A stretch of DNA of 64,000 nt from Bradymonadia bacterium (GCA_047629415.1 JBLHWZ010000001.1:3808-67807), one strand, 5' to 3'. Numbered from the stretch's first letter, positions 38,882-55,970 are shown. The notes: generated by a model from the sequence alone, not told the origin. Translations and numbers: made by a program.

Positions 38882-39475
38882 ATGTCTCACCCTGAACACA
38901 ACTCGACCCCCGACCGCGTCAAACTTCCGTTCACCTTCGACCCCGAGCGGTTGCTGGCGGAAGTTCAGGCCATGTCTCTCAGAGACTTCGTTCATTACGA
39001 TGTCGTGCCGTTGCGATCGCCGGCCCACTTCGTTGATCCGACCGTCCCGGCGCCTCCTCCAGCCGCGGACTTCGCTGACGGAAGCTGGACTCAGTGGAAA
39101 GACGCGCCCGGCCTCGAACGATCGCCGCACCTGCAGGAGGTCCTCGCCGCGTTCAACGCGAACACAGCGGTGAACCTGGTCCGGGTGCTTCGACTAGAAG
39201 CAGGTGGAGTGATCGCCGAACACACCGATCCAACACTTGGTCTGCACATTGAGCGTTCGATGGTGCGACTCACCGTTCCGATCGTTCGTGGGCCAGCCTG
39301 CACTTTCTGGCTCAACGACATCCCGGTACCGATGCTGCCAGGCGAATGCTGGTACCTGCGCCTTACCGATCCTCACAAAGTGCACAACAACGGGACGGCG
39401 GAGAGAATGAGCCTGACGATCGATGTGGTCCCGAACCCTTGGCTACAAGAGCTCATCCAGTCCGCAGCGCTCTAG
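38882..39475 (+). CDS. Aspartyl/asparaginyl beta-hydroxylase-family cupin (AspH/LpxO-like, Fe/2OG-type)
   Basis: LRLEAGGVIAEHTD ... TFWLNDIPVPMLPGECWYL ... HKVHNNGTAERMSL resembles the Asp_Arg_Hydrox domain (PF05118). Confidence 0.65.
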   Translation: MSHPEHNSTPDRVKLPFTFDPERLLAEVQAMSLRDFVHYDVVPLRSPAHFVDPTVPAPPPAADFADGSWTQWKDAPGLERSPHLQEVLAAFNANTAVNLVRVLRLEAGGVIAEHTDPTLGLHIERSMVRLTVPIVRGPACTFWLNDIPVPMLPGECWYLRLTDPHKVHNNGTAERMSLTIDVVPNPWLQELIQSAAL

Positions 39476-39552
39476 AAGACCGCAGGCGCCAGGCGGCTGT
39501 GTTGACTGCGTGCTGGCGTTGCCTCGTGCTCCTCTCGTGTTAGAAGACGCTC

Positions 39553-40626
39553 ATGACCTTGCTCGACCAACTCCGCCCGCCCGAAACGAAGGCCCGCGCA
39601 TCCGTCGCCCGCCTCTCGAAGGCTTGGTACGTCGCCTGCTTCTCCCACGAACTCCGCGCCAAGCCAGTGGCGCGTACGATTCTCGGGATACCACTCGCCG
39701 TTTATCGGAAGTCAGATGGTTCACCCGCCGCCGTGCTGGATCGATGCGCGCACCGCAACGCTCCGCTGAGTGAAGGCCAGGTAAAGGGGGATTGCGTCGA
39801 GTGCCCTTATCATGGGTGGCAGTTCAACTCGGACGGCGACTGCACCACAGTTCCCGGCTTGATGTCAGAAGAGGCATCGCGCGGCAGGCGGGTGAGCGCG
39901 TATCCAGCTCTCGAGCGCGACGGTTTTGTTTGGATTTGGACCGACGCGGACGAGCCGCCCGATCGCGAGCCGTTTGCGTTCCCGCTCGCAGATGCAGACG
40001 GCTACACGACCGTCCGCCGTATGGTGGAGGCCGAGGGCACCATGCACTCAGTCATCGAAAACGCGCTGGACGTTCCACACACCGCATTCCTCCACAAAGG
40101 CCTCTTTCGAGGTGTTTCCGAACCCAACGAGATTGAGGTGGTCATCCGCCGAGAGACCGACAGGGTCGAGGCGGAGTACATCGGAGAGCCGCGGCCAGAG
40201 GGAGTCATCGGCAGGTTCCTTTCACCATCCGGCGGGCTCGTCGTTCATTTCGACCGGTTCATTCTCCCGTCGATTCTGCAGGTTGAGTATTCGATTGGTG
40301 ACGAGAATCATGTGCTCGTGACTGGCGCTTGTACACCGGTCAATGACTTCCACACGCGGATGTATGCGGATGTGAAGGTCCGGTCTCGCGTTCCCGGGTG
40401 GCTCGTTAAGCTGGCGACGCCACTCGGCGTGAAGGTGTTCCAGCAGGACGCCGAAATGCTCGCGCTACAGACGGAGAACATTCGGAGATTCGGCGGGGAG
40501 CAGTTCGAGTCCACCGAGATAGACGTGCTTGGCGGACATATTTGGAAGCTGCTGAGGCAGGCCGAGCGCGGAGTAGAGGCGGAGCACGCCGAGTACGCTG
40601 AGAAGCGGTTCAAACTGCGCGCCTGA
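39553..40626 (+). CDS. Rieske [2Fe-2S] non-heme iron oxygenase, VanA/PaO-like (vanillate O-demethylase oxygenase-subunit family architecture)
   Basis: N-terminal KAWYVACFSHEL (compare VanA NAWYVAC). Rieske motif CAHRNAPLSEGQVKGDCVECPYHGWQF. Length about 357 aa with a C-terminal catalytic domain (DVPHTAFLHKG). Confidence 0.8.
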   Translation: MTLLDQLRPPETKARASVARLSKAWYVACFSHELRAKPVARTILGIPLAVYRKSDGSPAAVLDRCAHRNAPLSEGQVKGDCVECPYHGWQFNSDGDCTTVPGLMSEEASRGRRVSAYPALERDGFVWIWTDADEPPDREPFAFPLADADGYTTVRRMVEAEGTMHSVIENALDVPHTAFLHKGLFRGVSEPNEIEVVIRRETDRVEAEYIGEPRPEGVIGRFLSPSGGLVVHFDRFILPSILQVEYSIGDENHVLVTGACTPVNDFHTRMYADVKVRSRVPGWLVKLATPLGVKVFQQDAEMLALQTENIRRFGGEQFESTEIDVLGGHIWKLLRQAERGVEAEHAEYAEKRFKLRA

Positions 40627-40637
40627 CCGCGCACACC

Positions 40638-41471
40638 TTGAAGAATCCTATGCCCTACTCTGCCACGGCTAGCGTCTACGAACTCAACGGAGACGTTGCG
40701 ACTCCACAGGAGCCAGCGCGAAGCGGTTGGGATCCGCGTCTCGTTAACGGGAGTTCCACCTCTGCGCTGCTGGCCGCCGTGCTCGAGCGCGACCTTGCGC
40801 GCGAGGGTCACGCCCCCGCTCGGTTCATCGTCGATATGTTGCGGCCTATTCCGTTCGCCGATGCACGAGTAGAATCAGTCGTCACCCGGATGGGAGGGCG
40901 CCTTGCGCTCGGTGATGTGTCGATGTTTGTCGGAGACAAACTCGTCGCGCGGGCTTCGGGCATGTACTTGGCGCAGAACGAAGGCGACGAGTTCGCGACC
41001 CCGAACGCAACGCCTACCTCAGCCGATCAGCTGCGAAACGGGGTGCTGCTCCCGGACTTTGGGAGCGCCAGGGAACAGCCGCCGTTCCAGCATTTCTGCG
41101 ACATTCGATGGGCGACCGAGTTCGAGGCGACCGCTCCTGTCGTATGGTTTCGGCCACCGCCGGCCTTGATCGGTGGCCTACCGCCGTCCGACACGGTTCG
41201 TGCCGTCGCAGTGGCTGACTTGCTCGCTGGTCTCACCGTCACACACCAGATACGCAGCGGTTTTCCTCACGCGGCAGCGATCAACGCTGATCAACACATC
41301 GTCTTCGCCGGAGCGCCCGTAGGTGAGTGGTTCGCGCTGCGTATGGAGAGGGTCGCAGCTTCGCAAGGAGCGGGTTTTGCGTCAGCGGACGTCCTCGATT
41401 CTAGGGGACTGCGTGGCCGAGTGACACACACACGGGTCGGAAATCGGCCGCAGGCGAGGTCGCCAAGGTAA
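40638..41471 (+). CDS. Thioesterase-like (double hot-dog / acyl-CoA thioesterase II-like) protein, tentative
   Basis: 277-aa ORF located between the Rieske and CCD genes. A fold-level resemblance was recognised by eye with low certainty. Confidence 0.45.
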   Translation: MKNPMPYSATASVYELNGDVATPQEPARSGWDPRLVNGSSTSALLAAVLERDLAREGHAPARFIVDMLRPIPFADARVESVVTRMGGRLALGDVSMFVGDKLVARASGMYLAQNEGDEFATPNATPTSADQLRNGVLLPDFGSAREQPPFQHFCDIRWATEFEATAPVVWFRPPPALIGGLPPSDTVRAVAVADLLAGLTVTHQIRSGFPHAAAINADQHIVFAGAPVGEWFALRMERVAASQGAGFASADVLDSRGLRGRVTHTRVGNRPQARSPR

Positions 41472-41522
41472 AACGGACTCCGCGACCAAGACAGTGTGCC
41501 CTGTTCCAGATAGACTGGGCCA

Positions 41523-42965
41523 ATGAACATGCATCTCAACCCGTATCTCGCTGGTCCCTACGCCCCCATCGATGCAGAGCGCGGGCCCGTTACGCTCAAC
41601 GCGATCGAAGGTGAGATCCCCCGCGATCTTAACGGGATCTACGTGCGCAACGGTCCGAACCCCAAACATGAGGCGGAGGGTCAATACCACTGGTTCGACG
41701 GTGACGGCATGCTGCATTCGGTGCTCTTTGAGGACGGCACTGCGACCTATCGTAACCGCTGGATTCAGACCTCCCACATGGCTCGCGAGACCGAGGCTGG
41801 ACGAGCGCTCTGGCGCGGTTTGCTCGAGTCCGCTGCAAGGAACCCGAGGGACTCACCTTACAAGCTCACCGCGAATACGGACGTACTGAGTTGGAACGGG
41901 AAGCTCTACTGCCTCTGGTACATCTCGGGTACGCCCTACGCAGTCGACCTCGAGACATTAGAGACGTTTGGCGAAGAGACCTTTGCGCATGAAGGACTCC
42001 GCACGACGGCACACGCCAAGGTCTGCAGCGAAACCGGGGAGCTCATCTTCTTCGACTACGGCTTCCGCGCCCCTTTTATGCGCTGCGGCGTCGTGGGAAC
42101 TGACGGAGTGGTTAGCAACCTCGCCTCGATCGATCTCGGCGGGCCCCGCCTTCCGCACGATCTCGCGATAACGCGAAACCACACAATCCTCATGGATCTA
42201 CCGGTTCTCCCAGACCCTGAGGCCCTAAAGCGGGGGCGTTGGCGAACCAGCTTCGCCTCCGAAGTGCCTGCCCGGTTCGGCGTGATGCCTCGGCACGGCC
42301 GGGGAAGCGATATTCGCTGGTTCGAGGCAGCTCCCTGCTACGTCTACCATGTCATCAACGCGTGGGAGGATGGCAACACGATCGTCATGACTGGTTGCCG
42401 CTGCCCGGACCCGATCCAAGCGCCACGCGAGCGCGATGGAAAGCTCGGTCAGATGATGGCGAACCTACGAGTCACGGCGAGTTTGCATCGTTGGACCTTC
42501 GACCTGGACACCGGCGAGTGCCGCGAAGAGCAGCTCGACGACCGCAATGCAGAGTTTCCGAGCGTCGATCTCCGAACCGTCGGCCAAGCGAACAGGCACG
42601 GTTTCACAATGGCGCTCGACATCGACTCGACCCTGCGGTTCTCCGGTATCGTGAAGTATGATCTGCACACCGCCTCGGCCACCGAATGGAGCGTCGGCGA
42701 GGGGCGCTTCGCGAGCGAGGCCCCTTTTGCCCCTCGCGACGGCAGCGAGAGCGATGACGATGGGTATCTGGTCTCGCTCGTCAGGGACGCCAACTCCGGC
42801 GGCTCTGAGTTGGTGATACTCGACGCCGCGGACCTCCAGCAGGTCTGCAGACTCAGCGTGCCGTTCGACGTGCCTAACGGATTCCACGCAACTTGGGCCG
42901 ACTCGGATGAGCTGGCCAAAGCCCGAACCGCCTCATCCTCGAATCTGCTCACTCATCGGGGTTAG
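41523..42965 (+). CDS. Carotenoid-cleavage-dioxygenase family enzyme (RPE65 family; carotenoid/stilbene/isoeugenol oxygenase-like)
   Basis: The N-terminal NPYLAGPYAPIDAE...LNAIEGEIPRDLNGIYVRNGPNP...HWFDGDGMLH is the canonical CCD start. It is about 480 aa with conserved His positions. Confidence 0.9.
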   Translation: MNMHLNPYLAGPYAPIDAERGPVTLNAIEGEIPRDLNGIYVRNGPNPKHEAEGQYHWFDGDGMLHSVLFEDGTATYRNRWIQTSHMARETEAGRALWRGLLESAARNPRDSPYKLTANTDVLSWNGKLYCLWYISGTPYAVDLETLETFGEETFAHEGLRTTAHAKVCSETGELIFFDYGFRAPFMRCGVVGTDGVVSNLASIDLGGPRLPHDLAITRNHTILMDLPVLPDPEALKRGRWRTSFASEVPARFGVMPRHGRGSDIRWFEAAPCYVYHVINAWEDGNTIVMTGCRCPDPIQAPRERDGKLGQMMANLRVTASLHRWTFDLDTGECREEQLDDRNAEFPSVDLRTVGQANRHGFTMALDIDSTLRFSGIVKYDLHTASATEWSVGEGRFASEAPFAPRDGSESDDDGYLVSLVRDANSGGSELVILDAADLQQVCRLSVPFDVPNGFHATWADSDELAKARTASSSNLLTHRG

Positions 42966-43018: not shown

Positions 43019-45730
43019 TTACGGTCCCGGTACGATCCTGGCCGTCACACGCAGAGCCGATCCGTCCGCCCCGAGAGCGGGCAGCCGTACGGTCATCGTC
43101 GTCCCCTTGCCGACCGCGCTGGCAGCGTCCAGCGTGCCACCAGCATTTTCAATCGCACTCTGAGAGATCGACAAGCCGACGCCCATGCCCTGACCCTCCC
43201 CCGTGGTTGTGTAAAAGGGAGTGAACACTCGGACGAGATCTTCACGAGAGATTCCACAGCCGCTGTCGACGACGCGGATAATAAGCTCTGCCCCGAAAAC
43301 CGCGCTGCGCACGAAGACCTTGTCTCCAGCAACGCTGGCGTCGATCGCGTTCTGAATCAGGTTTCGGAAGGCCTGCTGAATCTCATCGGATAGGGTTCGC
43401 ACATAAACGTGGGGCGCACCCAACTCGAGTTCGACGTCGATCTCCTCTGTCTCCCCGCGGGAAGAGACGAGCTTGGCCAAGTCGGCCAATGTCTCGTCGA
43501 TAGGCACGAGGGAGGCGGTGTTGGGGAACCCCTCGCGGGAGTAACGATGCAAGATGTCTACGACGCCTTGGATCCGCAGAACACCGGAGTCGGTGGCCTT
43601 CTGGAGGCGGTGCATGCGGTCCGCGGCCTTCTGCAGCTTCTTGGCACGCTCTTCGGTGGAAAGCTGTTCGTCTTCGATGATTGTCATCGCCTTGGCGATC
43701 GTCTCGGCGACAAGCTGCGCGGTGCTTCGGATGTAGGTGAGCGGGTTGTGAATCTCGTGAGCGAGTCCGGCACTGACTTGCTCCAAACTCCGCTTTTGCG
43801 CTCGAATAATCGTGCGAACCTGACGACCTCGTTTGATCAGTTCGTTTCGGACGACGGTGCGGAGCTCCTTTGGAGAGAAGGGCTTCGCCATGTAGACATC
43901 AGCGCCCTTTCCGTAGGCCGTCTCCCGGTGCTCGACCTCGTTGCGACCGGTAAGCATCACGATCGGCGTCTCGGCGATCGTAGCGTCATTTCGAATCGCC
44001 TCGATCATCTGCACGCCGTTCATTACCGGCATCATATAGTCGGTAACGATCAGATCGGGCTTCTCACGCCGCGCGAGCTCCAGACCCATAGCACCGTCGG
44101 TGGCAGTGTAGACCGCGTGCTCCTCGTTGAGGAGTTGGGTGACGAATCGAATGATCTCGACGGTGTCCTCGACGATGAGCACCTTGGTGGGCTTGCCCTC
44201 GTCGTCTCGATTGCTGAGAACCCGCCGCTCCGTCGCTTCGTCGAGGCCGTAGAGGCGGTAGTCCTCAAGTTCGGTCAACGATTTCGACCACTCCGCTGCT
44301 CCACCATCCTCTTCTCGTCGGACTTGGTTGGAATCCGTGGGGTTACACTGGCGGCGCTCGATCGCATCAGGAGCGAAGTGTTCGGTGCCGCGAACGAGTC
44401 TGACAGTGAACGTGGTGCCCACTCCTTCCTCGCTCTCCACATCGATCGTGCCATTGTGAAGGTCGACGATCTCCTTCGCCAGGGCGAGTCCGATCCCGGT
44501 GCCGCCGAAGTTCCTCGACGCAGACTGGTCGGCTTGAGTGAAGCGCTCAAAGATCGACGGCAGGTAGTCTTCAGCAATGCCGATTCCGTTGTCTGTGACC
44601 CGAATCTCGACGCAATCTGGCTGCGTCACACAGCTGAGCCCCACCGTACCGCCTTCGGAAGTGAATTTGAGCGCGTTTGCCAAGAGGTTCACCAAGACAC
44701 GCTCCAGCATGTCCTCATCCGCGTAGAGGTCTGACGGAGGCGGCTGCGCGTCAATCGTCAGGTCGATGTCCTTCCGGGACGCCATCGACTCGGTCCGCGT
44801 GACGAGGTCCTCTAGGACGGTGACCGGGTTCACGATTCCGAGGCGAAGCCTCAGGTGACTCTCCTCGAGCTTTGCGAGGTCGAGCAGGTCAGTGATGAGC
44901 TTGAGAAGACGAACCGCATTACGCCACATGCCGTCGACATAGGATCGCAGCTCAGCGGGCAGATGAGCCTCGCCGTCGCGCAACTCCTGGAGCGGAGACA
45001 TCACGAGCGTCAGCGGAGTCCGCAGTTCGTGGGTGATGTTATTGAAGAACTGGGTTTTCACTCGGTCGGCGTCGCGCAGTTTTACGTTCGCGACCTCTAG
45101 CCTGTCTCGAGCTGACGCCAGTTCGCCATAGGCCTCATAAAGCTTCCGCGCGGCCGAGTCGCTCTCCGTCTCCAGTCGCGCGCGATTGCGCTGCGCGTAG
45201 ACGGCCACGAAGGTTGTCGTGAGGATGTACCCAACGTGAGAAATCGCCGCCGCCGAGTTGATCTTCCAAGCCCCAACGAACAGGGGCGCGAAGTAAGGCC
45301 CGAGCGCCGCTGCATAGAAGAGCGCAAGTGTGCGGCCTGACCACCGGAAGAGTAGAGCAACGGAGATCATGACGAACATGAGCCCGACGAAGTATTCCGA
45401 CTCGAAGCCTCCGTCGAAGGCGACCAGCGTCGTCATTGCCCATGCGACCGCGAGCCCGAGCCCGACACTCACAGCGACGTCGTGAGGCCGGAGCCATGCC
45501 GGCGGCTTTCGAGAGACCAAAAGCACGAGCGCACCGATGACAAAGAGCGACACTCGCACGGCGATAGTCACACCGATCGCATCAGCGATAAGGACCCGAT
45601 CCAGCGCCCAGTAGAACGGCTCCAACACGACGACGGTTAAGGCCGCGACCGGAATTAGGCGCCAGTTCCGAGCGCGGGCGGCCTCGGCCGGGGCAATTGG
45701 GAGTGCGCGGACGCTGTCGGTGCTGCTCAA
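43019..45730 (-). CDS. Hybrid sensor histidine kinase: TM sensor region, HisKA/HATPase, REC receiver, then a second HisKA/HATPase
   Basis: About 8 N-terminal TM helices. First H-box HELRTPLT with G-boxes. Receiver KVLIVEDTVEII...DLIVTDYMMPVMNG...K. Second H-box AGLAHEIHNPLTYI and a C-terminal ATPase domain. Confidence 0.9.
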   Translation of the reverse strand: MSSTDSVRALPIAPAEAARARNWRLIPVAALTVVVLEPFYWALDRVLIADAIGVTIAVRVSLFVIGALVLLVSRKPPAWLRPHDVAVSVGLGLAVAWAMTTLVAFDGGFESEYFVGLMFVMISVALLFRWSGRTLALFYAAALGPYFAPLFVGAWKINSAAAISHVGYILTTTFVAVYAQRNRARLETESDSAARKLYEAYGELASARDRLEVANVKLRDADRVKTQFFNNITHELRTPLTLVMSPLQELRDGEAHLPAELRSYVDGMWRNAVRLLKLITDLLDLAKLEESHLRLRLGIVNPVTVLEDLVTRTESMASRKDIDLTIDAQPPPSDLYADEDMLERVLVNLLANALKFTSEGGTVGLSCVTQPDCVEIRVTDNGIGIAEDYLPSIFERFTQADQSASRNFGGTGIGLALAKEIVDLHNGTIDVESEEGVGTTFTVRLVRGTEHFAPDAIERRQCNPTDSNQVRREEDGGAAEWSKSLTELEDYRLYGLDEATERRVLSNRDDEGKPTKVLIVEDTVEIIRFVTQLLNEEHAVYTATDGAMGLELARREKPDLIVTDYMMPVMNGVQMIEAIRNDATIAETPIVMLTGRNEVEHRETAYGKGADVYMAKPFSPKELRTVVRNELIKRGRQVRTIIRAQKRSLEQVSAGLAHEIHNPLTYIRSTAQLVAETIAKAMTIIEDEQLSTEERAKKLQKAADRMHRLQKATDSGVLRIQGVVDILHRYSREGFPNTASLVPIDETLADLAKLVSSRGETEEIDVELELGAPHVYVRTLSDEIQQAFRNLIQNAIDASVAGDKVFVRSAVFGAELIIRVVDSGCGISREDLVRVFTPFYTTTGEGQGMGVGLSISQSAIENAGGTLDAASAVGKGTTMTVRLPALGADGSALRVTARIVPGP

Positions 45731-46581
45731 TCGATCGGCGAGTTACGGTAGGTGAGCCGCAAGAGGTCGAATACGCCGGTCTTGAAACCATACTGTGCTG
45801 CTCCGAGGAATCCCTCGTAGCGGGCGTATGTGCTGGCGTCGGTCAACGTCGTTGCCTCAGTTTGCTTGGCTCTGAGGCGCCGACGCCATTCGCGGCACGT
45901 ACGCTCATAGTCGGCGCGATCGTTGCGGAGGCAAACCAACTCTAGCACGCTCTCGGCCGCAGTGGCGAGTTGCGAGAGGCGGGGCAGGTCGGACTCCGGA
46001 AAGATGAGCGCGACGGCACCAGTGACGTATCCGCCCTTGGCGTAGACGCTGGTCTGCAACGAGAGCTGACCGTTGGGCTTGAGCATCGCCGCGCATTTTT
46101 TAAAAAAGTGCTCGTACTTCATCACCCGTGTGCCGGCGTCGTCCTCGGGGCGAACGAAGTGCTCGATGGCACCGACCGAGATGAGCGAGTCGTAGAGTTC
46201 GTCAGGCTCGTGCTCCTCCCATGACTCCAGCCGGACGTCGGCGGAGCGCGGTCCATGCTCTTTGCAGTAGGCGAGCTGTGCCTTGCTGAGCGTGAGGCCA
46301 ACGGTGTTGGTGATTCCCTGTTCATGCAGGCGCCGCAGATTGGCTCCCCAGCCGCACCCAATATCGAGCACGCGCGACCCGGGGACCGCGCCTGACTCAC
46401 GAATATGGTGATCGATCTTGTTAAGCTGCGCTTGCTCGAACGAATCCGTCTCCGCCAGGTAGAGCGCCGACGAGTAGGTCATCGACTCATCGAGCCACAG
46501 ACCAAAGAACTGATTGTCCGTATCGTAGTGAGCCTGAATCGCTTTCGGGCTAGCGCCGGATGTACTTAGTGAATCGGTCAT
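45727..46581 (-). CDS. Cyclopropane-fatty-acyl-phospholipid synthase family SAM-dependent methyltransferase (CMAS, PF02353-like)
   Basis: QAHYDTDNQFFGLWLDESMTYSSALY with SAM motif VLDIGCGWGANLRRL. The start is set at the internal Met (MTDSLST), giving a 4-nt overlap with the upstream gene. Confidence 0.85.
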   Translation of the reverse strand: MTDSLSTSGASPKAIQAHYDTDNQFFGLWLDESMTYSSALYLAETDSFEQAQLNKIDHHIRESGAVPGSRVLDIGCGWGANLRRLHEQGITNTVGLTLSKAQLAYCKEHGPRSADVRLESWEEHEPDELYDSLISVGAIEHFVRPEDDAGTRVMKYEHFFKKCAAMLKPNGQLSLQTSVYAKGGYVTGAVALIFPESDLPRLSQLATAAESVLELVCLRNDRADYERTCREWRRRLRAKQTEATTLTDASTYARYEGFLGAAQYGFKTGVFDLLRLTYRNSPID

Positions 46582-48035
46582 TTTGCCCTTCGAGCCTCGA
46601 GGAAGTGCCAACTATCGCTGCTGTCACTTATCAGTTTGATAGAGTTCGCATCCGCTGTCTCTGGAAAGAGAGCCCTAACGTCCTCCTCCGAGCGGTAGAG
46701 GAGCCTCCAGTCCAGGACGAACTCCGGGACCCAGTGTACATCCGGGCGCCGAGCGGCGTTCCCGAAGAGCACGCGCCCGCCTGGTTCGACGAGTCGAAAA
46801 CATGTCTCGGCAACCTGCCGCGCGACAGGCTCAGTGAGGTAGTCGAAGAAGCCAGCCGAATAGATGAAATGCTGCTCGCCGAACTCATCAACAAGCCGCG
46901 GATCGGAGACCAATTGCTTGAACGAGGTGAATAAACAGCTGACTCGAATCCGATCGCGACACCTCCAGCCAGCGCGAGTTACGCGCTCATTGGCGTGGGA
47001 GAGCGCACGGTCGTCCTGGTCGATGAGCGTCCAGTGGATTTCGCGAGTTCCGTCATAGGTCGACAGAAACTCTTCGACCTCAGTCGCCGGACCTGACGCC
47101 AAGCACGCGATACGCAACGGCTCGGGACCGAGGGGAGCGTCTCGGATAACCCGGCCGAGGTGCTCCAAGAGCAACTGCTTGCGCGAGATCACTGTCGCTG
47201 CGAGCCTCTCCTCGCGTCCCAACTGGTGCATGATACGCCCGAATATTGAGTCCCCCCGGCGGGTCTCCTCGTACATGTAGCGCATCATCACGAAGTCCCC
47301 AGGGTAGCCGAACGGCTTCGTGTACGCCCGCCACCAAAGCGGCGCATCACTGAGCAGCGGCGTCACCAACAGTTCAGTCAGTCGCTTGGCCGCGTGGAAC
47401 GTCGCTCGGTCACGATCGAGCGTCAGGGATGCTTCGTTTGCCGCGAGCCGCAGCCGTCGCCACTCACCACGCATTTCCTCTTCGGCCTTCCTCTCCGCAA
47501 CCTCCAAGCTATCCAGGGCCAACGTGCCCTCGATACTCCCAAGCTCTTCCTCTCGACGATCGAGCAGGTCCTTCCAGTGGGCAAGAAACATCGCCACTTG
47601 CGAGACGATCTCTCGGTATTCGCGCGGAACCAGATCGTATTTCTTAGTTCCTTGCGCCAACGCCTTCTCAAACGCGAAGCTGTCGTGAACTGTGGCCAAA
47701 CGCGGGATATCGATGAAGTCGTCCAAGATCGTCATCGCGACCTTAGAGCGCGACGTCGGGTCTTCGACTCGGACGATACGCCCCCGACCCGAGAACGCCT
47801 CGATCGTGTCGAAGCTCATCGAGACCGCATGCTCTGTTCCTACCTTCGGCAGATCGGAATCTGGAGATGGAAAGTACGAGAGTCCGTTCATGCTGACGTC
47901 GTAGAGGCTGACCGCCTGCCCACCAACAAAGACCGACGGCTTCGCCGATCCCATCAGCGTGCGGGACTGGTAACGCTCTGACCGAAAATGAATGGACCGA
48001 CCCACCCCACCACTAAGTTCTTCGTACTCGCTCAT
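46578..48035 (-). CDS. PilZ-like N-terminal domain fused to a class I SAM-dependent methyltransferase domain
   Basis: N-terminal RSIHFRSERYQSR ... DVSMNGLSYF (PilZ RxxxR / DxSxxG pattern). The C-terminal half carries the Rossmann methyltransferase motif LRIACLASGPATE ... DYLTEP ... VEPGGRVLFG. Confidence 0.7.
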   Translation of the reverse strand: MSEYEELSGGVGRSIHFRSERYQSRTLMGSAKPSVFVGGQAVSLYDVSMNGLSYFPSPDSDLPKVGTEHAVSMSFDTIEAFSGRGRIVRVEDPTSRSKVAMTILDDFIDIPRLATVHDSFAFEKALAQGTKKYDLVPREYREIVSQVAMFLAHWKDLLDRREEELGSIEGTLALDSLEVAERKAEEEMRGEWRRLRLAANEASLTLDRDRATFHAAKRLTELLVTPLLSDAPLWWRAYTKPFGYPGDFVMMRYMYEETRRGDSIFGRIMHQLGREERLAATVISRKQLLLEHLGRVIRDAPLGPEPLRIACLASGPATEVEEFLSTYDGTREIHWTLIDQDDRALSHANERVTRAGWRCRDRIRVSCLFTSFKQLVSDPRLVDEFGEQHFIYSAGFFDYLTEPVARQVAETCFRLVEPGGRVLFGNAARRPDVHWVPEFVLDWRLLYRSEEDVRALFPETADANSIKLISDSSDSWHFLEARRAK

Positions 48036-48359
48036 CTACCTCACAAGTGAATGCCTAGCCCTACAAGTTACACCCACTCTTATCCGGGTGTAAACCAAGA
48101 CTTTGAGCCGACTCTCGCCAGACCAGCGAAAACCCTAACTCCCGACGCAATGCGGAAGCAGTTCGCTAATCTCGAACTAATGCGCACAAAACACCTCGCA
48201 ACTCCGGCCCTCACTATTGCTAACGGAGGCGACAACGCTACGAGAGAGAGCAGCGACACGAGCCTAAACCATCGTGGTCACACTCCGCGGCTTGCTGCTG
48301 CTGACCCCTCGTCCAGGCGAATCGAAGACACTATTGGGCATAGGCGCTAGGTTGGTTGC

Positions 48360-49556
48360 ATGCGCTCACGACAAAAAATCACCGACGCCTTCATCTATGG
48401 CGGCATTCGCACGCCTCGCGGAAAGTCGCGACCCGAAGGGGCGCTCCACTCCGTCCGCCCCTCCCGATTGGCAGCCTACGTCCTCCAATATCTGGTCGCA
48501 GAGCACAGCAGGTCCGAGATCGACGATATCCTTCTAGGTTGCTCAACGGCTAGCGGGGAGCAGGGCGCAGACATCGCGCGAATCGCTGCTCTGATGGCGG
48601 GTCTCATCGAAGCTCCAGGCGCGACCATCAGCCGCTTCTGCACTTCCGGCCTAGACGCCGTCGCGCTAGCGGCTGCCAAGGTCGCGTCCGGCGCCGCGTC
48701 GCTCACGATCGCAGGTGGCGTGGAGTCTACCTCACGGGTCCCGATGTTCGCGGACGGCGGCGACTGGTTCGCGGACACGGAGGTCGCGTCGGAGACTGGA
48801 TTTGTGCACATGGGAGTCTCGGCAGACCTCCTCGCGACGCTCGCGGGTTTGGAACGGGGGGCGCTAGACGCCTACGCCCAGCGCTCGCATCAACGTGCCG
48901 CCGAGGCACGCGACGGCGCGATGTTCAAATCGTTACGGCCTGTTGAACTCGCTGACGTCGCGTTCGCTCAGGACGAGCTTATCCGGGATGGAATCTCGCT
49001 CTCTAAGCTGGCGTCCCTGACGCCTGCGTTTGATAATGTCGGGGGGGATAACATCGTGCGTTCGCGGTACCCTGAAATCGGAGAGGTTCGACGGCTTCAC
49101 ACCGTCGGCACATCACCGTCCCTAGCGGACGGCGCCTGCGCGCTTTACGTCGGGGACGAAGAGGGCGGCGCAAAACTCGGCGCTGTACCTCGAGCCCGAA
49201 TCGTTGGGTCCGCGACACATGCGGTGGAGCCGGTCCTCATGCTCACAGGAAACGTCGAGTGCACACGAAAAGCTCTGCGGAGCGCCGGTATGGAGCTCGG
49301 TGACATCGACGTGTTCGAGGTCAACGAGTCGTTCGCCGCCGTGCCTCTGCACTATAGCCGCGAGCTCTGCATCGATGAGAGCGACCTCAATGTCTTTGGT
49401 GGTGCGATCGCGATGGGGCATGCACTTGGAGCGACCGGTGCAATGCTGGTCCTCACCGCCCTGGATGTACTTGAGCAACGCGACGCGAACACCGCCGTGG
49501 TATCGATTTGCGGCGGAGCTGGCGTCGCAACGACGCTGGTCCTCGAACGTGTATGA
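48360..49556 (+). CDS. Acetyl-CoA C-acyltransferase (thiolase family)
   Basis: Active-site Cys region RFCTSGLDAV and C-terminal NESFAAV...GGAIAMGHALGATGA...CGGAGVA. Confidence 0.9.
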   Translation: MRSRQKITDAFIYGGIRTPRGKSRPEGALHSVRPSRLAAYVLQYLVAEHSRSEIDDILLGCSTASGEQGADIARIAALMAGLIEAPGATISRFCTSGLDAVALAAAKVASGAASLTIAGGVESTSRVPMFADGGDWFADTEVASETGFVHMGVSADLLATLAGLERGALDAYAQRSHQRAAEARDGAMFKSLRPVELADVAFAQDELIRDGISLSKLASLTPAFDNVGGDNIVRSRYPEIGEVRRLHTVGTSPSLADGACALYVGDEEGGAKLGAVPRARIVGSATHAVEPVLMLTGNVECTRKALRSAGMELGDIDVFEVNESFAAVPLHYSRELCIDESDLNVFGGAIAMGHALGATGAMLVLTALDVLEQRDANTAVVSICGGAGVATTLVLERV

Positions 49557-49772
49557 TGACGACCAAGGCTGCTCTGCCGCTGGGCAACTCCATGAGTCAT
49601 GGTGGGCGCAGAGGCTTCAGTTCGAGGCCGGCAGACGAGACGACGGGAGGACAGTCGCGCCGCTCCCGCGCGAACCCAAATCCAGTCCCCCTTCCTTCCC
49701 CTCAAACTCCGAGCGGCCATGTACACAATATGGACGAGGCGTGTAGGCTCGCCGCATCATGAGCTGGGTCGC

Positions 49773-51929
49773 ATGAACTACTTCTCCACTTGTCTCGCAC
49801 TCGCCTCACTCGTCGCTCTCTCAGCGTGCACCAGCGACCGTCCGCCCGGGAACCCGGGAGTCGATACGGAGCCGAGCGCTGACACGATCGACGCAGGCCC
49901 CGACTTGGTTGTGGCGGACACTGACGTCGCCCCCGACAGTTCCGATGTCGGGCCTGACACTGCCCTGGACACCCCCGACTCCGAGCAGGACGTTCGGCTC
50001 GACATAGCGCCGGAAACTGGAGAAACAGGAGTTCCCGACCCCCGCGAGACCGGAGAAGACTGCCGAGACTCAGAGGACTGCGAGAGCGGCCTCTGCATCG
50101 TGGTAGCCGCGGGACGCAGCGTCTGTTCGAACGAGTGTGACGCTGGCTGCCAAGCGGGCTGGACCTGCTTGGGCGCGATCTGCCAATGCGGGGCAGGCGA
50201 AGAGATCTGCGATGGGCTAGACAACGACTGTGACGCGCACGTCGACGAAGGCGGCGCCGAGTTAATCGGGTGCCCAGCCGGAGGCGTCTGCGACGCGGGT
50301 GTTTGCGGCTGCCCTTCCGACGAACTGATCTGCGACGACGGCTGCTTTGATTCCATGACCAGCAACGAACATTGTGGTGGGTGCGACCAAGCATGCTCGC
50401 CCGGCGACCTCTGCATAGATGGCTACTGTCCCTGCCTCTCCGGTGACGAAACGCGCTGTGATTCTCTGTGTACGGATCTCACGAGCGACGTGGACAACTG
50501 CGGGGGCTGCGGTGTCTCTTGCGGATTCGGCGTCTGCGACGAAGGCGCGTGCATCTGTGGCGAACCTGAGACGAGCTGTGAGAGCGGCTGCGCCGACGTC
50601 GCAACCGATTGGCAAAACTGCGGCGCCTGCGGGACCGTTTGCGGCGACGATCAGGTCTGCGTGGCGGGCGCGTGTGAATGCGGCTGCCCCGATGCCAGTT
50701 GCGCAGACGGAGCGTGCCTTCCGCTCGGATTTGGGAACTCACTGACCCTCGAGTTCGAGTTCAACGGGGCAGCCCTCCGAACCGACATCGTCTTCAATAT
50801 CGACACCACCGGGTCGATGGGCCCGTCGATCGAGATCCTGGATCGTGACTTCGATGACGGCATCCTTCTGGCATCACGCGACGCTTTTGAGGACCCCGCA
50901 TTCGCGCTCACCTCGTTCGCCGATTTCCCATGTGTATGGAACGGATCCGGCGGTAGCGGGCGAGACGTCCCCATGCGACTGGAGCAGCGAATAACTGCGT
51001 ACCCGAGCCAGTTAGTCGCGGCGCTAGGTAGGCTGCGTGCTGCCGGCGGACGCGATATCCCGGAGACAGGAATCGAGGCGCTCTATCAGATCGCGACCGG
51101 CGTCGGATCTGATGAGTGCCGCCCAGGTATCGTCGCTCCGTTCGATCCGCGCGTGGGGAGAATCGAGGGCGTAGCCGACGGGGTGGCCGGGGGAGTCGGC
51201 TTCCGCGAGGGCGCCCAACCGATCGTATTCCATCTCACCGACGCCCCCAGCCACGCGCGCGAGGATGAGCAATATAAGTTCGGTGCCACCGAGCCTGAAG
51301 CGATCGCCGCCCTCCAAGAAGCGGGCATTCGTGTCGTCGGTCTCTTCACCATCGACGATGCTCTGGAAGACCTCGAGGCCTTCATCGCAGAGACTGGAGC
51401 GGCAGCCCCGACTTGCGCATGGGATGCTGCAAGACACTTCGACTGCTCGCCCGGTGAGTGCTGCACATGGCTCGGACGCTCGGGCACCGAACCGGACTCG
51501 ACCGGCCGATGCCCTCTTGGCTACTACGTGCGCCGCGGCTTCTTGAACGAAGACGACCTCACGGATGTCGCGTCAGACGCTTATCGCGTGCTGACCCAAC
51601 ACGTAGGCCGTGATGTGGTCATCCGTGCCGTGTCTAACCGAGAGGCTGCGGACCCCGCCTTTGACACGCGCTGCCTGATAGAAGAGCTCCGCATCGTCGA
51701 AACGGCTTCGAGCGGCGAGTGTCGACCCGAAACGATAACGGTGGACGTCGACGCAGATGGTGTGACGGAAGCAGCAACCGGTGTGACGGCGGCAACCACA
51801 GTGAGGGTTGAAGTCGACGTGAACAACACGTGCGCAAACGATGCAGGCGCCTACCCCGTGCACTTCGAACTCACAGGCACCGACGGGGTGCTCCTGGGCG
51901 AAGAGTCGGTCGCGTTCTTCGTACGCTAG
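49773..51929 (+). CDS. Lipoprotein with Cys-rich repeats (CxDGxDNDCD, myxobacterial Cys-rich repeat type) and a C-terminal vWA-like domain
   Basis: The start is set at ATG 49773 (MNYFSTCLALASLVALSACTSD lipobox). Repeats like ICDGLDNDCDAHVDEGG are present. IVFNIDTTGSMGP is a MIDAS-like motif. Confidence 0.65.
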   Translation: MNYFSTCLALASLVALSACTSDRPPGNPGVDTEPSADTIDAGPDLVVADTDVAPDSSDVGPDTALDTPDSEQDVRLDIAPETGETGVPDPRETGEDCRDSEDCESGLCIVVAAGRSVCSNECDAGCQAGWTCLGAICQCGAGEEICDGLDNDCDAHVDEGGAELIGCPAGGVCDAGVCGCPSDELICDDGCFDSMTSNEHCGGCDQACSPGDLCIDGYCPCLSGDETRCDSLCTDLTSDVDNCGGCGVSCGFGVCDEGACICGEPETSCESGCADVATDWQNCGACGTVCGDDQVCVAGACECGCPDASCADGACLPLGFGNSLTLEFEFNGAALRTDIVFNIDTTGSMGPSIEILDRDFDDGILLASRDAFEDPAFALTSFADFPCVWNGSGGSGRDVPMRLEQRITAYPSQLVAALGRLRAAGGRDIPETGIEALYQIATGVGSDECRPGIVAPFDPRVGRIEGVADGVAGGVGFREGAQPIVFHLTDAPSHAREDEQYKFGATEPEAIAALQEAGIRVVGLFTIDDALEDLEAFIAETGAAAPTCAWDAARHFDCSPGECCTWLGRSGTEPDSTGRCPLGYYVRRGFLNEDDLTDVASDAYRVLTQHVGRDVVIRAVSNREAADPAFDTRCLIEELRIVETASSGECRPETITVDVDADGVTEAATGVTAATTVRVEVDVNNTCANDAGAYPVHFELTGTDGVLLGEESVAFFVR

Positions 51930-54004: not shown

Positions 54005-55837
54005 CTAGCCGCCGAAAGCAGCCAACGCCGCGATTCTGCCAAACGCGCTGCCCGGAACGTCGACCCGCACGATCGCCTCGTTGTGGTCGATCTCCCATTC
54101 GGCAGAGGAAAAAGCGCCGTGTAAGCCCGCCGCCATCAATGCGAACGTGTAGTGCTCGACCACGCTCGACCACTGTGACGAAAAGTCCTCGGCTTCCTCA
54201 CGGTTCTCGAAGACGAATCGTCCTTCGAATTTCGGCTGGCGACCTAACGAGAGCGCCGCCACCAGTTGCTGTGGAGCAGCTGTGCCAGAGCGCATGCCAT
54301 CGACTCGGAACGATCGGAAACCACTGAATGTCCACAACACCGCCGGACCGCGACGGCCGGTTCCGGCGAGGTCACCAGCCTCCAGCAAGCCGCGCATCCA
54401 AGGCGCATCGTCGCGGATTGGGGGCTCGCCATCCGCGCTGTTGCGTCGGCCGTTTCCGCGAGCATCACGCCACTCCTCAAGTGCTTCGTCACGGCGGGCT
54501 TCTGCCTGCGGCAACAGCTCCTCGCGTTGTGCGTCCCATGCGACGATCGCGCGATTTGTCTCCCGAGTTCGATCCCGTTGACGTTCGTTGCATCGAGTTC
54601 GGCCAACTCCGCGTCGGTCGTCACAACCGGGAGCGTCGTATTCTTCAGGGCGCTCGCCAACCAACCCCAACTCCACGAGGAGCTCATCGAGAGTCGGCGG
54701 CGGTCCCAGCACGGTCGAAATTGTGTTGGCCTCGTCCGCGAGGCCGCGAGCGCTCGGCGCCCCGCGCAGGAGATCATCCATCAGATCGGGTTGCGCGTAA
54801 ATCAGCAGGCGGTCCATCGGTACCAAGAAGCGACGCTGAAACGAGGTGCCCGCTCCCGGGGTTCCAAGGTACCGCCCATCACTCCGCTCCTCCCAGTTGA
54901 CGCCGCTCGGGAACCCGCGCCGGAGCTCCGACATCAGATATCCGGGGTCGAGGTGATGAACCGCTGCAACAAACGTGCGCTGGCTGTTGGAGATGTCCGT
55001 CGAGGCGAGCAACATCGTGTCGACATCGTCGATCAGGTTGATCCCCGTGTTCTCGGTCAAGTGCTGCGTATCGCCAAGCGCTCCGAAGATAGCTTCGACT
55101 TGATCGCGATACGGAGAGCGGCGGATTCGATCGTTCCTAATGATTGCCACCGAAGCGGCTCCCTCAGGGCCCCACATGCCAACGTCCGTCGCAACAGGGT
55201 TTACTGTGCCTTCTGGATACCGCTGCGTAGGGGGCAATGACGCCGGATCGACCGGTTCTTCCGGCGCTGGTGCTGCCGGCTCACTCGTTTCGGCTGGCTC
55301 ACTGGGTTCTACCGGCTCGCGACGCTCGCGAGGCCGCCGAAGTCGATCACCCGGACGGCGCGCCGGTTCGGTCCCAGCATCCGTCGGAGGCTCGTCGGTA
55401 CCGTCGTCTCCCACCTCGGGCTCTACCTGAGGCTCCACTCGCTCGGGCTCCACTTGAGGCTCGACGGGCTCGACGGGCTCGACGGGCTCGACGGGCTCGA
55501 CGGGCTCGACGGGTTCCGTCTCAAACTCAGTCATTTCCTGAGCGAGCGCCTCCATCTCTTCTTGAGTGAGTTCGGATTCGACGTACTCTTCTGGAGGCTC
55601 GTCGGATGGCTCCGCCCAACCGATCTGTGCCATCAGCGCGACACCAGCAGACTCCTGCACGTCGATGTCTACCGACACCTCAGGCGCTCTCACGGTGTAA
55701 GCGATCACCACCACCATCGAATGGAGAATCGCGGAAGCGACGAGGCACATCACCAGCCCCCGCTCGAGCAGGAGCCGGTTCTTCGAGATCGCCTCGACCT
55801 CGGTCGAGCCTGGTTCTTTTGTGCTTACTTCGTTCAT
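54005..55837 (-). CDS. Membrane-anchored hypothetical protein with a (PVE)n / Pro-Glu-rich repeat linker and a large C-terminal domain
   Basis: TM helix LVMCLVASAILHSMVVVIAYTV. The segment PVEPVEPVEPVEPVEPVEPQVEPERVEPQVEPEV is encoded by a 9-bp tandem repeat. The start at MNEVSTK is a guess. Confidence 0.55.
   Translation of the reverse strand: MNEVSTKEPGSTEVEAISKNRLLLERGLVMCLVASAILHSMVVVIAYTVRAPEVSVDIDVQESAGVALMAQIGWAEPSDEPPEEYVESELTQEEMEALAQEMTEFETEPVEPVEPVEPVEPVEPVEPQVEPERVEPQVEPEVGDDGTDEPPTDAGTEPARRPGDRLRRPRERREPVEPSEPAETSEPAAPAPEEPVDPASLPPTQRYPEGTVNPVATDVGMWGPEGAASVAIIRNDRIRRSPYRDQVEAIFGALGDTQHLTENTGINLIDDVDTMLLASTDISNSQRTFVAAVHHLDPGYLMSELRRGFPSGVNWEERSDGRYLGTPGAGTSFQRRFLVPMDRLLIYAQPDLMDDLLRGAPSARGLADEANTISTVLGPPPTLDELLVELGLVGERPEEYDAPGCDDRRGVGRTRCNERQRDRTRETNRAIVAWDAQREELLPQAEARRDEALEEWRDARGNGRRNSADGEPPIRDDAPWMRGLLEAGDLAGTGRRGPAVLWTFSGFRSFRVDGMRSGTAAPQQLVAALSLGRQPKFEGRFVFENREEAEDFSSQWSSVVEHYTFALMAAGLHGAFSSAEWEIDHNEAIVRVDVPGSAFGRIAALAAFGG
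55459..55513. repeat. 9-bp tandem repeat (GGGCTCGAC x6) inside the 54005..55837 CDS, encoding the PVE repeat on the minus strand
   Basis: Read directly; coordinates are within a few nt. Confidence 0.8.
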
Positions 55838-55970
55838 GCGTCGGTCGGGGACTGTTGCCTTGCACGCTGAGTCTTGCAACGCAACGCGAAACGCATCGGT
55901 CTGACGACCACGCCTCCAATCGATTCACCGACGCGAGCGACGCCACCCCTTAAGCGACGCCAAAAACCGA

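Follow-up and report, generated by a model that had tools for sequence, protein, structure and literature searches.

A three-gene operon of a Bradymonadia genome resembles a distant, rearranged relative of the Phc quorum-sensing operon

Three minus-strand genes lie in a row in the window, by which we mean the whole 64-kb stretch analysed, from a Bradymonadia (Myxococcota) MAG, and encode proteins of 485, 284 and 903 aa (Table 1; gene 2 has the NCBI record MFT6395304.1). An earlier sequence-only reading of the locus had described them as joined by 4-nt overlaps, and both junctions agree with it: the end of gene 1 (...GCA AAA TGA) is overlapped by the ATG of gene 2 (ATGA), and the end of gene 2 (...ATC GAT TGA) by a TTG (TTGA), which we infer to be the start of gene 3, as no other start yields the TTGA overlap. 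Gene 1 starts with ATG, with the ribosome-binding site GAGG 5-8 nt upstream, and GC3 is 0.71-0.74 in genes 1, 2 and 3 and alike in the neighbouring genes. The region between gene 1 and the divergent thiolase gene is the presumed promoter region; a consensus scan of 48036..48359 found no sigma-70-like site. Synteny of the trio in relatives was also confirmed, its order being kept at 85% and 55% identity. The operon is flanked by thiolase, acyl-CoA thioesterase, Rieske oxygenase and RPE65 oxygenase genes. The Rieske/thioesterase/RPE65 cassette is convergent with the operon, as previously noted, and among the relatives only the closest one, L002 (85% identity), has it too; the flanking genes are absent from every other related locus examined. 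The oxygenase cassette is unrelated context.

Table 1. Features of the operon and its upstream region, in window coordinates
Feature	Position	Strand	Basis or description
Gene 1	46578..48035	-	PilZ-like / helical bundle / class I SAM methyltransferase, PhcB family; ORF and RBS
PilZ-like domain, gene 1 aa 13-110	47706..47999	-	Foldseek, motif conservation, PF07238 matches of homologues
Helical linker and cap, gene 1 aa 110-299	47139..47705	-	AF2 secondary structure, invariant columns
Rossmann-fold SAM methyltransferase domain, gene 1 aa 300-485	46581..47138	-	Weak Methyltransf_12/25 matches, invariant columns, Foldseek
Gene 2	45727..46581	-	CMAS-family methyltransferase, 284 aa counted from ATG; PF02353
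Gene 3	43019..45730	-	Membrane sensor-HK-REC-HK hybrid kinase, 903 aa, TTG start (inferred); Pfam domains
Polytopic membrane sensor, gene 3 aa 1-215, ~6 TM	45086..45730	-	PhcS/MASE8-like; hydropathy, hhalign
First kinase core (HisKA with H234, then HATPase_c)	44381..45085	-	Pfam, sequence inspection
Receiver, gene 3 aa 513-635, Asp564	43826..44194	-	Response_reg E=2.6e-24, sequence inspection
Second kinase core (H658, then HATPase_c)	43061..43798	-	Colinear with PhcR together with the receiver
Intergenic region upstream of gene 1	48036..48359	-	Divergent from thiolase gene; presumed promoter region

The linker of gene 1 is made up of three long helices and, after them, a helical cap bearing an invariant KPxGYPGD motif (columns K240, P241, G243, Y244, G246 and D247 in the family). 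The C-terminal domain gave weak methyltransferase matches only in Pfam (Methyltransf_12, E=0.0017), its residues G315, A317, E319, Q340, D398 and Y399 are invariant in the family, and the small-molecule methyltransferases SgvM, SibL and CurJ CMeT are among its Foldseek matches. Gene 1 is colinear with Cupriavidus PhcB (24% identity over 458 aa, E=8e-31) and also matches a Paraburkholderia PhcB-like protein (E=6e-35). These two references, 69% identical to each other and both located inside phcB-phcS-phcR-phcQ operons, are operon orthologues that stand in for Ralstonia PhcB. Moreover, close homologues of gene 1 carry the PhcB name in their JGI label, 'EF 3-hydroxypalmitic acid methyl ester biosynthesis protein'. 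Judged by sequence, gene 1 is homologous over its full length to the beta-proteobacterial PhcB, a quorum-signal methyl-ester synthase; as it shares only ~24% identity with the PhcB that has been studied experimentally, its substrate may differ. The N-terminal domains of beta-proteobacterial PhcB and of the window's clade, when compared alone, gave no significant match (hhalign probability 19%), and for this reason the name 'degenerate PilZ' for the PhcB N-terminus draws on colinearity only.

The N-terminus of gene 1 has an Arg-rich lead-in (R13, R18, R21, R25) and a six-strand beta-barrel spanning residues 33-103. In its AF2 model (pLDDT 81), the strands (33-37, 40-47, 51-55, 68-75, 78-91, 98-103) are followed by a C-terminal helix as in PilZ domains, and this helix starts at residue 110 in the model of the full protein (pLDDT 88). 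The best 23 Foldseek matches of the N-terminus in the PDB are all c-di-GMP-bound PilZ domains, the PilZ matches having a probability of 1.0 and TM of 0.5-0.6; the MapZ-CheR1 complexes 5xly and 5y4r are among the fold matches. PF07238 matched neither the gene 1 protein at E<=0.1 nor its isolated residues 1-129 even at E<=10, therefore the PilZ claim needed other evidence. The same model matched 42 of 52 aligned homologues (E<=0.01, best 9e-8). The (D/N)xSxxG motif is present as D46-V-S48-M-N-G51, aligned with LRDLSRSG of VCA0042, and across the homologues it is kept almost without exception (D/N in 60/60, S in 59/60, G in 60/60). An RxxxR motif can be read as R21-Y-Q-S-R25, with R or K at position 25 in just 33 of 54 homologues; the family-invariant pair is R18 and R21, spaced RxxR rather than in the canonical manner, which only 41 of 129 representatives (a full-length, 50%-identity set) display. 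The R..R pair plus [DN]xSxxG is kept in 100 of these 129 representatives vs none of 120 beta-proteobacterial PhcBs, and R89 is likewise near-perfectly conserved along with the two arginines and [DN]xSxxG in sequences that are only 27-40% identical. The fold, the motifs and the family HMM matches support the fusion of a PilZ-like domain to a class I SAM methyltransferase that the sequence-only reading had proposed; of the two checks it had named, the predicted structure agrees for gene 1 itself, while the HMM recognizes most of its homologues and not gene 1.

The conserved signature makes the PilZ domain look intact for c-di-GMP binding. The operon could alternatively be a Phc-like module in which this domain has a purely structural, oligomerisation or docking role, with no c-di-GMP binding and no gating, and the missing Pfam match of gene 1, the RxxR spacing and the functional beta-proteobacterial PhcBs that work without PilZ motifs would all agree with that. 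We regard it as unlikely, because near-perfect purifying selection on [DN]xSxxG, the two arginines and R89 at such low identity would be difficult to account for if no ligand were bound, and because, according to a review (bioRxiv 10.1101/814665), PilZ domains still bind c-di-GMP when they are part of a fusion protein. A precedent for control of a methyltransferase is given by MapZ (PA4608) of Pseudomonas aeruginosa, which in its c-di-GMP-bound form binds and inhibits CheR1, the contact surface being the helix after the PilZ barrel (bioRxiv 10.1101/814665). Both cases bring together a PilZ barrel and a class I methyltransferase; however, MapZ acts in trans, whereas gene 1 is a cis fusion through a long helical bundle, and its methyltransferase is of the PhcB type and not CheR, with a target that is presumably a lipid and not a chemoreceptor.

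Gene 2 was correctly placed in the CMAS family from the outset (PF02353, E=4e-53, 180.9 bits with a cut-off of 27). Mycolic-acid methyltransferases and CFA synthases are its best sequence matches (E 1e-31 to 1e-35), and the closest solved structures are CmaA2, PcaA, MmaA2, MmaA4 and CmaA1. With mycobacterial CmaA1, CmaA2, PcaA and MmaA1-4 and bacterial CFA synthases it shares the ~285-aa single-domain format, the SAM motif VLDIGCGWG, the catalytic Glu (E140) and Tyr (Y225). Its scores stay far below the cut-offs of the NCBIfam CFA synthase/mycolic methyltransferase equivalogs (151 vs 390, 128 vs 650 and 126 vs 400 bits), its matches begin at about position 105-116 of the 383-410-residue CFA synthase models, and it lacks the N-terminal lipid-binding domain of bacterial CFA synthases. 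From the CmaA1 and E. coli CFAS literature we take C35, E140, H167 and Y232 of CmaA1 to be the bicarbonate-site residues of cyclopropane synthases. Gene 2 has S38, E140, Q176 and Y225 instead of the full set, Cys35 being replaced by Ser, and the equivalent of H167 is Gln176 in 9/9 operon-linked orthologues, a clade-specific His-to-Gln change. A further difference from the mycolic and CFA enzymes is the location of gene 2 in what appears to be a signalling operon.

In the window's clade, the gene immediately after the PhcB-like gene is a CMAS gene in 8/9 informative loci. A Thermoanaerobaculales locus has it directly upstream of the PhcB-like gene, between this and the kinase, and the CMAS genes of the window-clade loci and of this locus have the LSLQT variant in common. 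Most loci of the PhcB-like family are without a CMAS gene. It is an add-on found largely in the window's clade and does not belong to the family's core.

Pfam detected HisKA plus HATPase_c twice in gene 3 with Response_reg between them, and hydropathy indicated ~6 hydrophobic spans in residues 25-153, in line with the earlier description of two kinase modules flanking a receiver, with a polytopic membrane sensor. The H-boxes are HELRTPL (H234) and HEIHNPL (H658), and the receiver Asp lies within LIVTD564. The sensor is all-membrane and almost without periplasmic loops. Its clade profile matched the sensor of beta-proteobacterial PhcS (hhalign 97.1%, E=5e-11, 185 columns), a value to be read with the caveat that composition can inflate profile matches of TM domains. 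Pfam MASE8 (PF20968), present in Cupriavidus PhcS and in several kinases beside PhcB-like genes, did not match gene 3 residues 1-224 at E<=10. Residues 513-884 are colinear with residues 8-370 of Cupriavidus PhcR (23.6% identity, E=3e-14), and residues 652-884 align with PhcS 225-440 (28.6% identity). As the sensor matches PhcS and the REC-HK half is colinear with PhcR, gene 3 looks like a PhcS-PhcR fusion. The best match to its whole architecture is LvrA of Leptospira (NF047465; gene 3 191-885 to profile 168-818/819), which has a different N-terminal sensor; orthology with LvrA was rejected (322.6 bits vs a cut-off of 1200).

The neighbourhoods were compared in a non-redundant set of 29 metagenomic loci, each with no less than 3 kb of sequence on either side of the PhcB-like gene. 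A kinase core lies within 1.6 kb of this gene in 24/29 and within 4.5 kb in 26/29 loci; HK-REC-HK kinases occur at 8/29, many accompanied by a separate REC-HK (PhcR-like) gene, and an MMPL lipid exporter adjoins the PhcB-like gene at 7/29. The core partnership of the family is synthase plus sensor kinase, which is nearly universal and is often joined by an MMPL exporter. This pattern fits a diffusible lipid signal better than bulk membrane-lipid homeostasis.

The latter would mean that both methyltransferases cyclopropanate or methyl-branch bulk membrane lipids, with tuning of the enzyme by c-di-GMP, while the kinase senses the physical state of the membrane. The usual substrates of CMAS enzymes are acyl chains bound to phospholipid or ACP, which would make gene 2 compatible with bulk-lipid modification too; its nearest relatives, the mycolic-acid and CFA synthases, have lipid acyl chains as substrates, and the all-membrane sensor and the PilZ evidence of gene 1 agree with this reading as well. 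We nevertheless consider it improbable: gene 1 shows homology to a known autoinducer synthase from end to end, the CMAS gene is missing in most of the family while the kinase partnership is not, MMPL exporters recur beside the synthase, and gene 2 itself departs from the CFA and mycolic enzymes in its equivalog scores (126-151 bits against cut-offs of 390-650), its missing lipid-binding domain and its His-to-Gln change at the bicarbonate site. The sequence-only reading, in which second messenger and membrane state together control lipid methylation, is not supported as stated, given a PhcB homologue, a kinase made of PhcS-like and PhcR-like parts, and a synthase-kinase pair that recurs across the family while the CMAS gene belongs to one clade. 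A tailoring cluster without signalling, in which the methyltransferases act on a natural product or lipid made by the flanking genes and the kinase is a local regulator, draws on the thiolase, thioesterase and oxygenase neighbours and on the natural-product methyltransferases among the full-length fold matches of gene 1, but is very hard to credit: apart from the 85%-identical relative, no related locus examined has those neighbours, and the trio or the synthase-kinase pair travels across phyla without them.

In the known system, methyl 3-hydroxymyristate or -palmitate is made by the methyltransferase PhcB; the sensor kinase is PhcS, and PhcQ is a REC protein. Ralstonia uses a 3-hydroxy fatty acid methyl ester as its signal. 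PhcR of the Ralstonia phc operon combines a receiver and a kinase domain (PMC8578825), and the phcB-phcS-phcR-phcQ operons of the Cupriavidus and Paraburkholderia references agree with this published operon. The operon studied here shares with phcBSRQ of the Ralstonia solanacearum species complex and Cupriavidus the full-length synthase homology, the arrangement in one operon with the synthase beside the sensor, a MASE8-like membrane domain in the sensor kinase and a REC-HK unit colinear with PhcR; the PhcS-type and PhcR-type parts are present together in one protein. It differs from phcBSRQ in that this fusion of 903 aa has an extra HELRTPL-type kinase core, a CMAS-family methyltransferase sits between synthase and sensor, and gene 1 has ~16 extra N-terminal residues with the Arg-rich motif and DxSxxG, where beta-proteobacterial PhcBs have NLQRKS. 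The host is a myxococcotal MAG and not a beta-proteobacterium. BLAST of the 64-kb window with PhcQ, PhcR and REC queries found no PhcQ-like receiver and no other REC or HK gene, and BLAST found no MMPL or PhcA-like partner in the window, the queries including none specific to PhcA.

Judged by its gene content, the operon seems to be a remote relative of the Phc quorum-sensing operon of Ralstonia, with its parts rearranged. We lean, with modest confidence, towards a Phc-type module for cell-cell (or self) lipid signalling whose synthase may be switched by c-di-GMP. Gene 1 would act as a PhcB-family SAM-dependent methyltransferase making a small, diffusible, methylated signal derived from a fatty acid. 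Gene 2, translationally coupled to it and altered in its active site, would most likely put a second methyl-derived modification on the acyl chain, which could be a C-methyl, methylene or cyclopropane group at a double bond or an O-methylation of a hydroxyl, and would yield a clade-specific signal. The lipid would be perceived within the membrane by the PhcS/MASE8-like six-helix domain of gene 3; autophosphorylation at H234 and transfer of the phosphate to its own receiver at D564 may then control the second, PhcR-like core (H658), which would act on a response regulator encoded elsewhere. As the signature for c-di-GMP binding is preserved in the PilZ domain of gene 1, intracellular c-di-GMP would probably bind there and switch synthesis of the signal.

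The minus-strand operon at 43019-48035 encodes what we rate as a new Phc-like module, in which the synthase bears a PilZ-like domain, a CMAS-type enzyme has been added and the sensor looks like PhcS and PhcR joined in one protein. The gene junctions read ATGA and TTGA, which bears out the 4-nt overlaps and the coupled-looking arrangement proposed in the sequence-only reading, and the GC3 of the three genes (0.71-0.74) is the same as that of the adjoining genes. The long form of gene 1, starting at 48035, is backed by the GAGG ribosome-binding site and by three invariant residues, Y4, L7 and G9. For the close homologue P0003, the start was placed at the internal Met28 (about 47954), which cuts off the Arg-rich lead-in to the PilZ-like domain and indicates that members of this family can lose their RxxxR motif from view through automatic start-codon choice. 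The exact gene 1 product had no copy in a collection of 15 billion proteins; the gene 2 product is present there and matches MFT6395304.1, encoded on a 71-kb contig of a Bradymonadia (Myxococcota) MAG, at full identity. A promoter and terminator scan gave nothing above shuffled expectation. With the 362-aa product that NCBI and JGI record for the divergent thiolase gene, the intergenic (promoter) stretch ahead of gene 1 may gain about 100 bp over its length in the ORF list. Two further ORFs, of 776 and 624 aa, had no Pfam match; the former is very rich in Cys and Asp, shows C-x-C/G-C patterns again and again, has a hydrophobic segment at its N-terminus and probably encodes a secreted repeat protein.

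Positions of the operon genes, neighbouring features and features of related loci (L numbers, own coordinates)
Feature	Positions	Strand	Description
Gene 1, PilZ-like/methyltransferase	46578-48035	-	485 aa, ATG start, GAGG 5-8 nt upstream
Gene 2, CMAS-family methyltransferase	45727-46581	-	284 aa
Gene 3, membrane sensor-HK-REC-HK kinase	43019-45730	-	903 aa, putative TTG start
Oxygenase/thioesterase cassette	38882-42965	+	Asp/Asn-beta-hydroxylase-like protein, Rieske/VanA_C oxygenase, two-domain acyl-CoA thioesterase, RPE65-family dioxygenase
Thiolase ORF	48360-49556	+	398 aa from first ATG
776-aa ORF	49599-51929	+	Coding-like GC3
624-aa ORF	54005-55879	-	Coding-like GC3
L003	1174-2931		Class III nucleotidyl cyclase with TPR repeats near PhcB-like module
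L005	12801-14372		GAF-sigma54 activator near PhcB-like module, possible output regulator
L007	10532-12999		IS element (rve integrase genes) between CMAS gene and MASE8 kinase fragments
L008/L009/L049	6317-7780, 8001-9479		Tandem PhcB-like PilZ-methyltransferase paralogues, two kinases flanking
L010, Paraburkholderia graminis pPHS1_P, NZ_CP024936.1	430540-436970		phcB-phcS operon on conjugative 494-kb plasmid

Several homologues of gene 1 are named by JGI as the extracellular factor 3-hydroxypalmitic acid methyl ester biosynthesis protein, i.e., PhcB. Among plasmids, tblastn picked out a full-length relative in P. graminis, with genes for a kinase and two receiver proteins after it, and this relative as query retrieved thousands of beta-proteobacterial homologues (Cupriavidus, Massilia, Janthinobacterium) with the same PhcB naming. 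Residues 37 to 481 of gene 1 are colinear with the Cupriavidus PhcB (24% identity, E=8e-31), whose locus encodes in order PhcB (463 aa), a MASE8-HisKA-HATPase kinase (443 aa), a REC-HisKA-HATPase protein (381 aa) and a REC protein (332 aa). This order matches the phcB-phcS-phcR-phcQ layout of Ralstonia, where PhcR consists of a receiver and a histidine-kinase domain without DNA binding (PMC8578825). On the P. graminis plasmid, only a receiver of 134 aa (64% identity with PhcR 1-122) remains of the PhcR counterpart, and a PhcQ orthologue comes next. The same strand also carries, 1 kb upstream, a CFA-synthase-family gene of the canonical, His-containing kind.

The N-terminus of gene 1 had been read as a PilZ domain fused to a class I methyltransferase, and this holds for the fold, the motifs and the homologues, though not for a Pfam match of the protein itself. 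Neither Pfam nor NCBIfam gave a PilZ or PhcB model match for the full-length protein or its isolated N-terminus, the latter having no Pfam PilZ match even at E<=10, and the full-length protein showed only weak methyltransferase similarity in Pfam. PDB sequence searches with the full-length family profile and the N-terminal profile returned insignificant matches only, the best N-terminal one being the PilZ protein VCA0042 (E=1.2). Many of the 66 relatives retrieved by homology search carry precomputed PF07238 matches, and when aligned full-length homologues were scanned singly, 42 of 52 had PilZ at E<=0.01 (best 9e-8). Alignment of 60 sequences showed the three defining residues of (D/N)xSxxG, which reads D46-V-S48-M-N-G51 in gene 1, in 60/60, 59/60 and 60/60 cases, and R18 (54/55), R21 (54/54) and also R89 were essentially invariant. 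The window protein has the canonical R21xxxR25, but only 33 of 54 homologues carry R or K at position 25, which makes RxxR(x)R, and not the textbook RxxxR, the signature of the family. In the AlphaFold models, which are confident (pLDDT 88 for the full length, 81 for residues 1-112), a six-strand barrel (33-103) leads into three long helices (110-203), followed by a helical cap and, at 307-482, the Rossmann methyltransferase. The top 23 Foldseek PDB matches of the N-terminal model are all c-di-GMP-bound PilZ domains, including BcsA, MotI, Alg44, YcgR, VCA0042, PA0012 and MapZ, with probability 1.0, TM 0.5-0.6 and modest E-values of about 2e-3. We conclude from the model and the alignments that the predicted fold and the key motif are those of a PilZ domain, for which c-di-GMP binding is predicted. 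The fold search with full-length gene 1 matched only generic small-molecule methyltransferases and gave no clue to the substrate.

R18, R21, [DN]xSxxG and R89 are kept in nearly all of about 85 aligned members from outside the beta-proteobacteria (27-100% identity to gene 1), whereas in all sampled beta-proteobacterial PhcBs the start lies about 16 residues further in, NLQRKS replaces DxSxxG and R89 is exchanged for Ser or Asn. When 1.84 billion cluster representatives were searched exhaustively with a profile, 2,247 proteins reached E<=1e-30, and the R..R signature followed by [DN]xSxxG was present in 100 of 129 full-length proteins among the top matches vs none of 120 beta-proteobacterial PhcBs. 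When the N-terminal domains of the two groups were aligned on their own by hhalign, the similarity was insignificant (19% probability). The canonical PhcB N-terminus could be a degenerate PilZ domain, judging solely from colinearity.

Gene 3 has the Pfam order HisKA/HATPase_c, Response_reg, HisKA/HATPase_c behind about six hydrophobic spans (residues 25-153), as expected of the HK-REC-HK kinase with a polytopic membrane sensor described previously, with H-boxes at H234 (HELRTPL) and H658 (HEIHNPL) and the receiver Asp in LIVTD564. Its receiver and second kinase (513-884) are colinear with PhcR 8-370 (E=3e-14), and the second kinase core is also similar to the PhcS core. MASE8 was not detected in gene 3 by Pfam. 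Compared by hhalign with the beta-proteobacterial PhcS sensor, the membrane-domain profile of the gene 3 clade aligned over 185 columns (97.1%, E=5e-11); it also aligned with the membrane domains of kinases adjoining other PhcB-like clades (97.6% and 98.7%), and these figures are possibly somewhat inflated by composition bias of transmembrane segments. On these sequence comparisons we rate gene 3 as a probable PhcS-PhcR fusion. The best curated whole-protein model was LvrA, but orthology was rejected at 322 bits vs a cut-off of 1200. Beyond the operon, a BLAST search of the 64-kb window found no GGDEF-like, REC, HK, MMPL or PhcQ gene.

The assignment of gene 2 to the CMAS family is supported by Pfam (CMAS, E=4e-53), and its closest solved structures are M. 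tuberculosis CmaA2, PcaA, MmaA2, MmaA4 and CmaA1 (E 1e-31 to 6e-35). The alignment was read in PcaA/CmaA1 numbering, in which C35, E140, H167 and Y232 are the residues given a bicarbonate-ligand role in work on CmaA1 and E. coli CFAS. At these positions, gene 2 carries S38 instead of C35 and Q176 instead of H167, and keeps E140 and Y225 (equivalent to Y232). The Gln (LSLQT) occurs in 9/9 operon-linked orthologues, most of which retain Cys35. These residue changes, together with scores far under the NCBIfam equivalog cut-offs, mark gene 2 as a distinct CMAS subfamily. Cyclopropanation is possible, and a methylene or methyl branch or O-methylation, exemplified in the mycobacterial family by MmaA3, is equally plausible.

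We compared one genome locus (a Myxococcales MAG, 55% identity), contigs retrieved through exact-protein look-up and, by way of a profile-guided scan, 80 metagenomic loci. With annotation by BLAST using domain queries, four layouts recurred. At >=38% identity to gene 1, the order is PhcB-like, CMAS, an optional MMPL gene and HK-REC-HK (L001, L002, L003, L007, L013, L015, L016, L017, and L018 without CMAS); at about 33-36% it is HK-REC-HK, PhcB-like and REC-HK, with CMAS inserted in one Thermoanaerobaculales locus; at about 28-33% an optional MMPL gene precedes the PhcB-like gene, which is convergent with a kinase of roughly 500 aa; the beta-proteobacterial layout is phcBSRQ. Among 29 non-redundant loci with >=3 kb on both sides, a kinase core lay within 1.6 kb of the PhcB-like gene in 24 and within 4.5 kb in 26, an MMPL exporter adjoined in 7, and only 1 had CMAS. 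The expected synteny in relatives is found for the synthase-kinase pair, and for the trio with CMAS in the first layout. The kinase association in 26 of 29 loci identifies the synthase and the membrane kinase as the constant unit, an arrangement characteristic of an autoinducer synthase and its receptor, and the CMAS gene is an accessory specific to one clade. The tandem paralogues of L008/L009/L049, the upstream one with a PilZ match at E=0.003, may form a two-signal system, and the IS element apparently disrupts the sensor in the L007 genome. The oxygenase cassette is convergent with the operon as noted before, and we rejected it as part of the system because its Rieske, thioesterase and RPE65 genes recur, among the related loci, only in L002, the relative with 85% identity, where the hydroxylase-like gene is unmatched.

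The domain observations of the sequence-only reading largely stand, but on function a signal synthase and sensor has better support than the control of membrane-lipid methylation that it proposed. For the mechanism of such a synthase and sensor, we infer the substrate, product, ligand binding and relay order. Gene 1 would produce a methylated fatty-acid-derived signal, to which gene 2, translationally coupled to gene 1, would add a second methyl-derived modification. The signal lipid would partition into the membrane, or be exported in relatives having the MMPL gene, and its sensor would be the six-helix domain of gene 3. Phosphate would then pass from H234 to D564, and the second, PhcR-like kinase (H658), under the control of the receiver, would signal to an unlinked regulator. 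The PilZ domain would make signal synthesis by gene 1 c-di-GMP-dependent. MapZ, which is among the N-terminal Foldseek matches, provides with CheR1 a precedent for PilZ control of a methyltransferase in trans (bioRxiv 10.1101/814665), and the cited review generalises that c-di-GMP binding is kept by the PilZ domains of fusion proteins.

We hypothesize, with clearly less than even confidence, that synthesis of a Phc-type lipid autoinducer is gated directly by intracellular c-di-GMP through a built-in PilZ domain of the synthase, that the PilZ-PhcB and kinase pair is widespread, that Ralstonia PhcB is a derived form which lost this input, and that the CMAS enzyme of the window clade yields a chemically new signal. 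If so, the pair would span more than 2,000 clusters at 50% identity in Myxococcota, Acidobacteriota and other uncultured lineages, and the signal of the window clade could be, e.g., a methyl-branched, cyclopropanated or methoxy fatty acid methyl ester. We found no paper joining PhcB with PilZ or c-di-GMP binding and no description of Phc-type systems outside Burkholderiales, and Phc quorum sensing is regarded in the literature as peculiar to Ralstonia and close relatives. Homologous synthase-sensor pairs are common in uncultured bacteria, as the number of cluster representatives indicates, and most members outside the beta-proteobacteria bear the conserved c-di-GMP-receptor signature, whereas the studied PhcBs are without it. 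The co-translated CMAS variant suggests undescribed signal chemistry. If the PilZ domain binds c-di-GMP, it would be a cis-fused counterpart of the MapZ-CheR1 control and would provide a direct post-translational link between the second messenger of the sessile/motile switch and autoinducer production.
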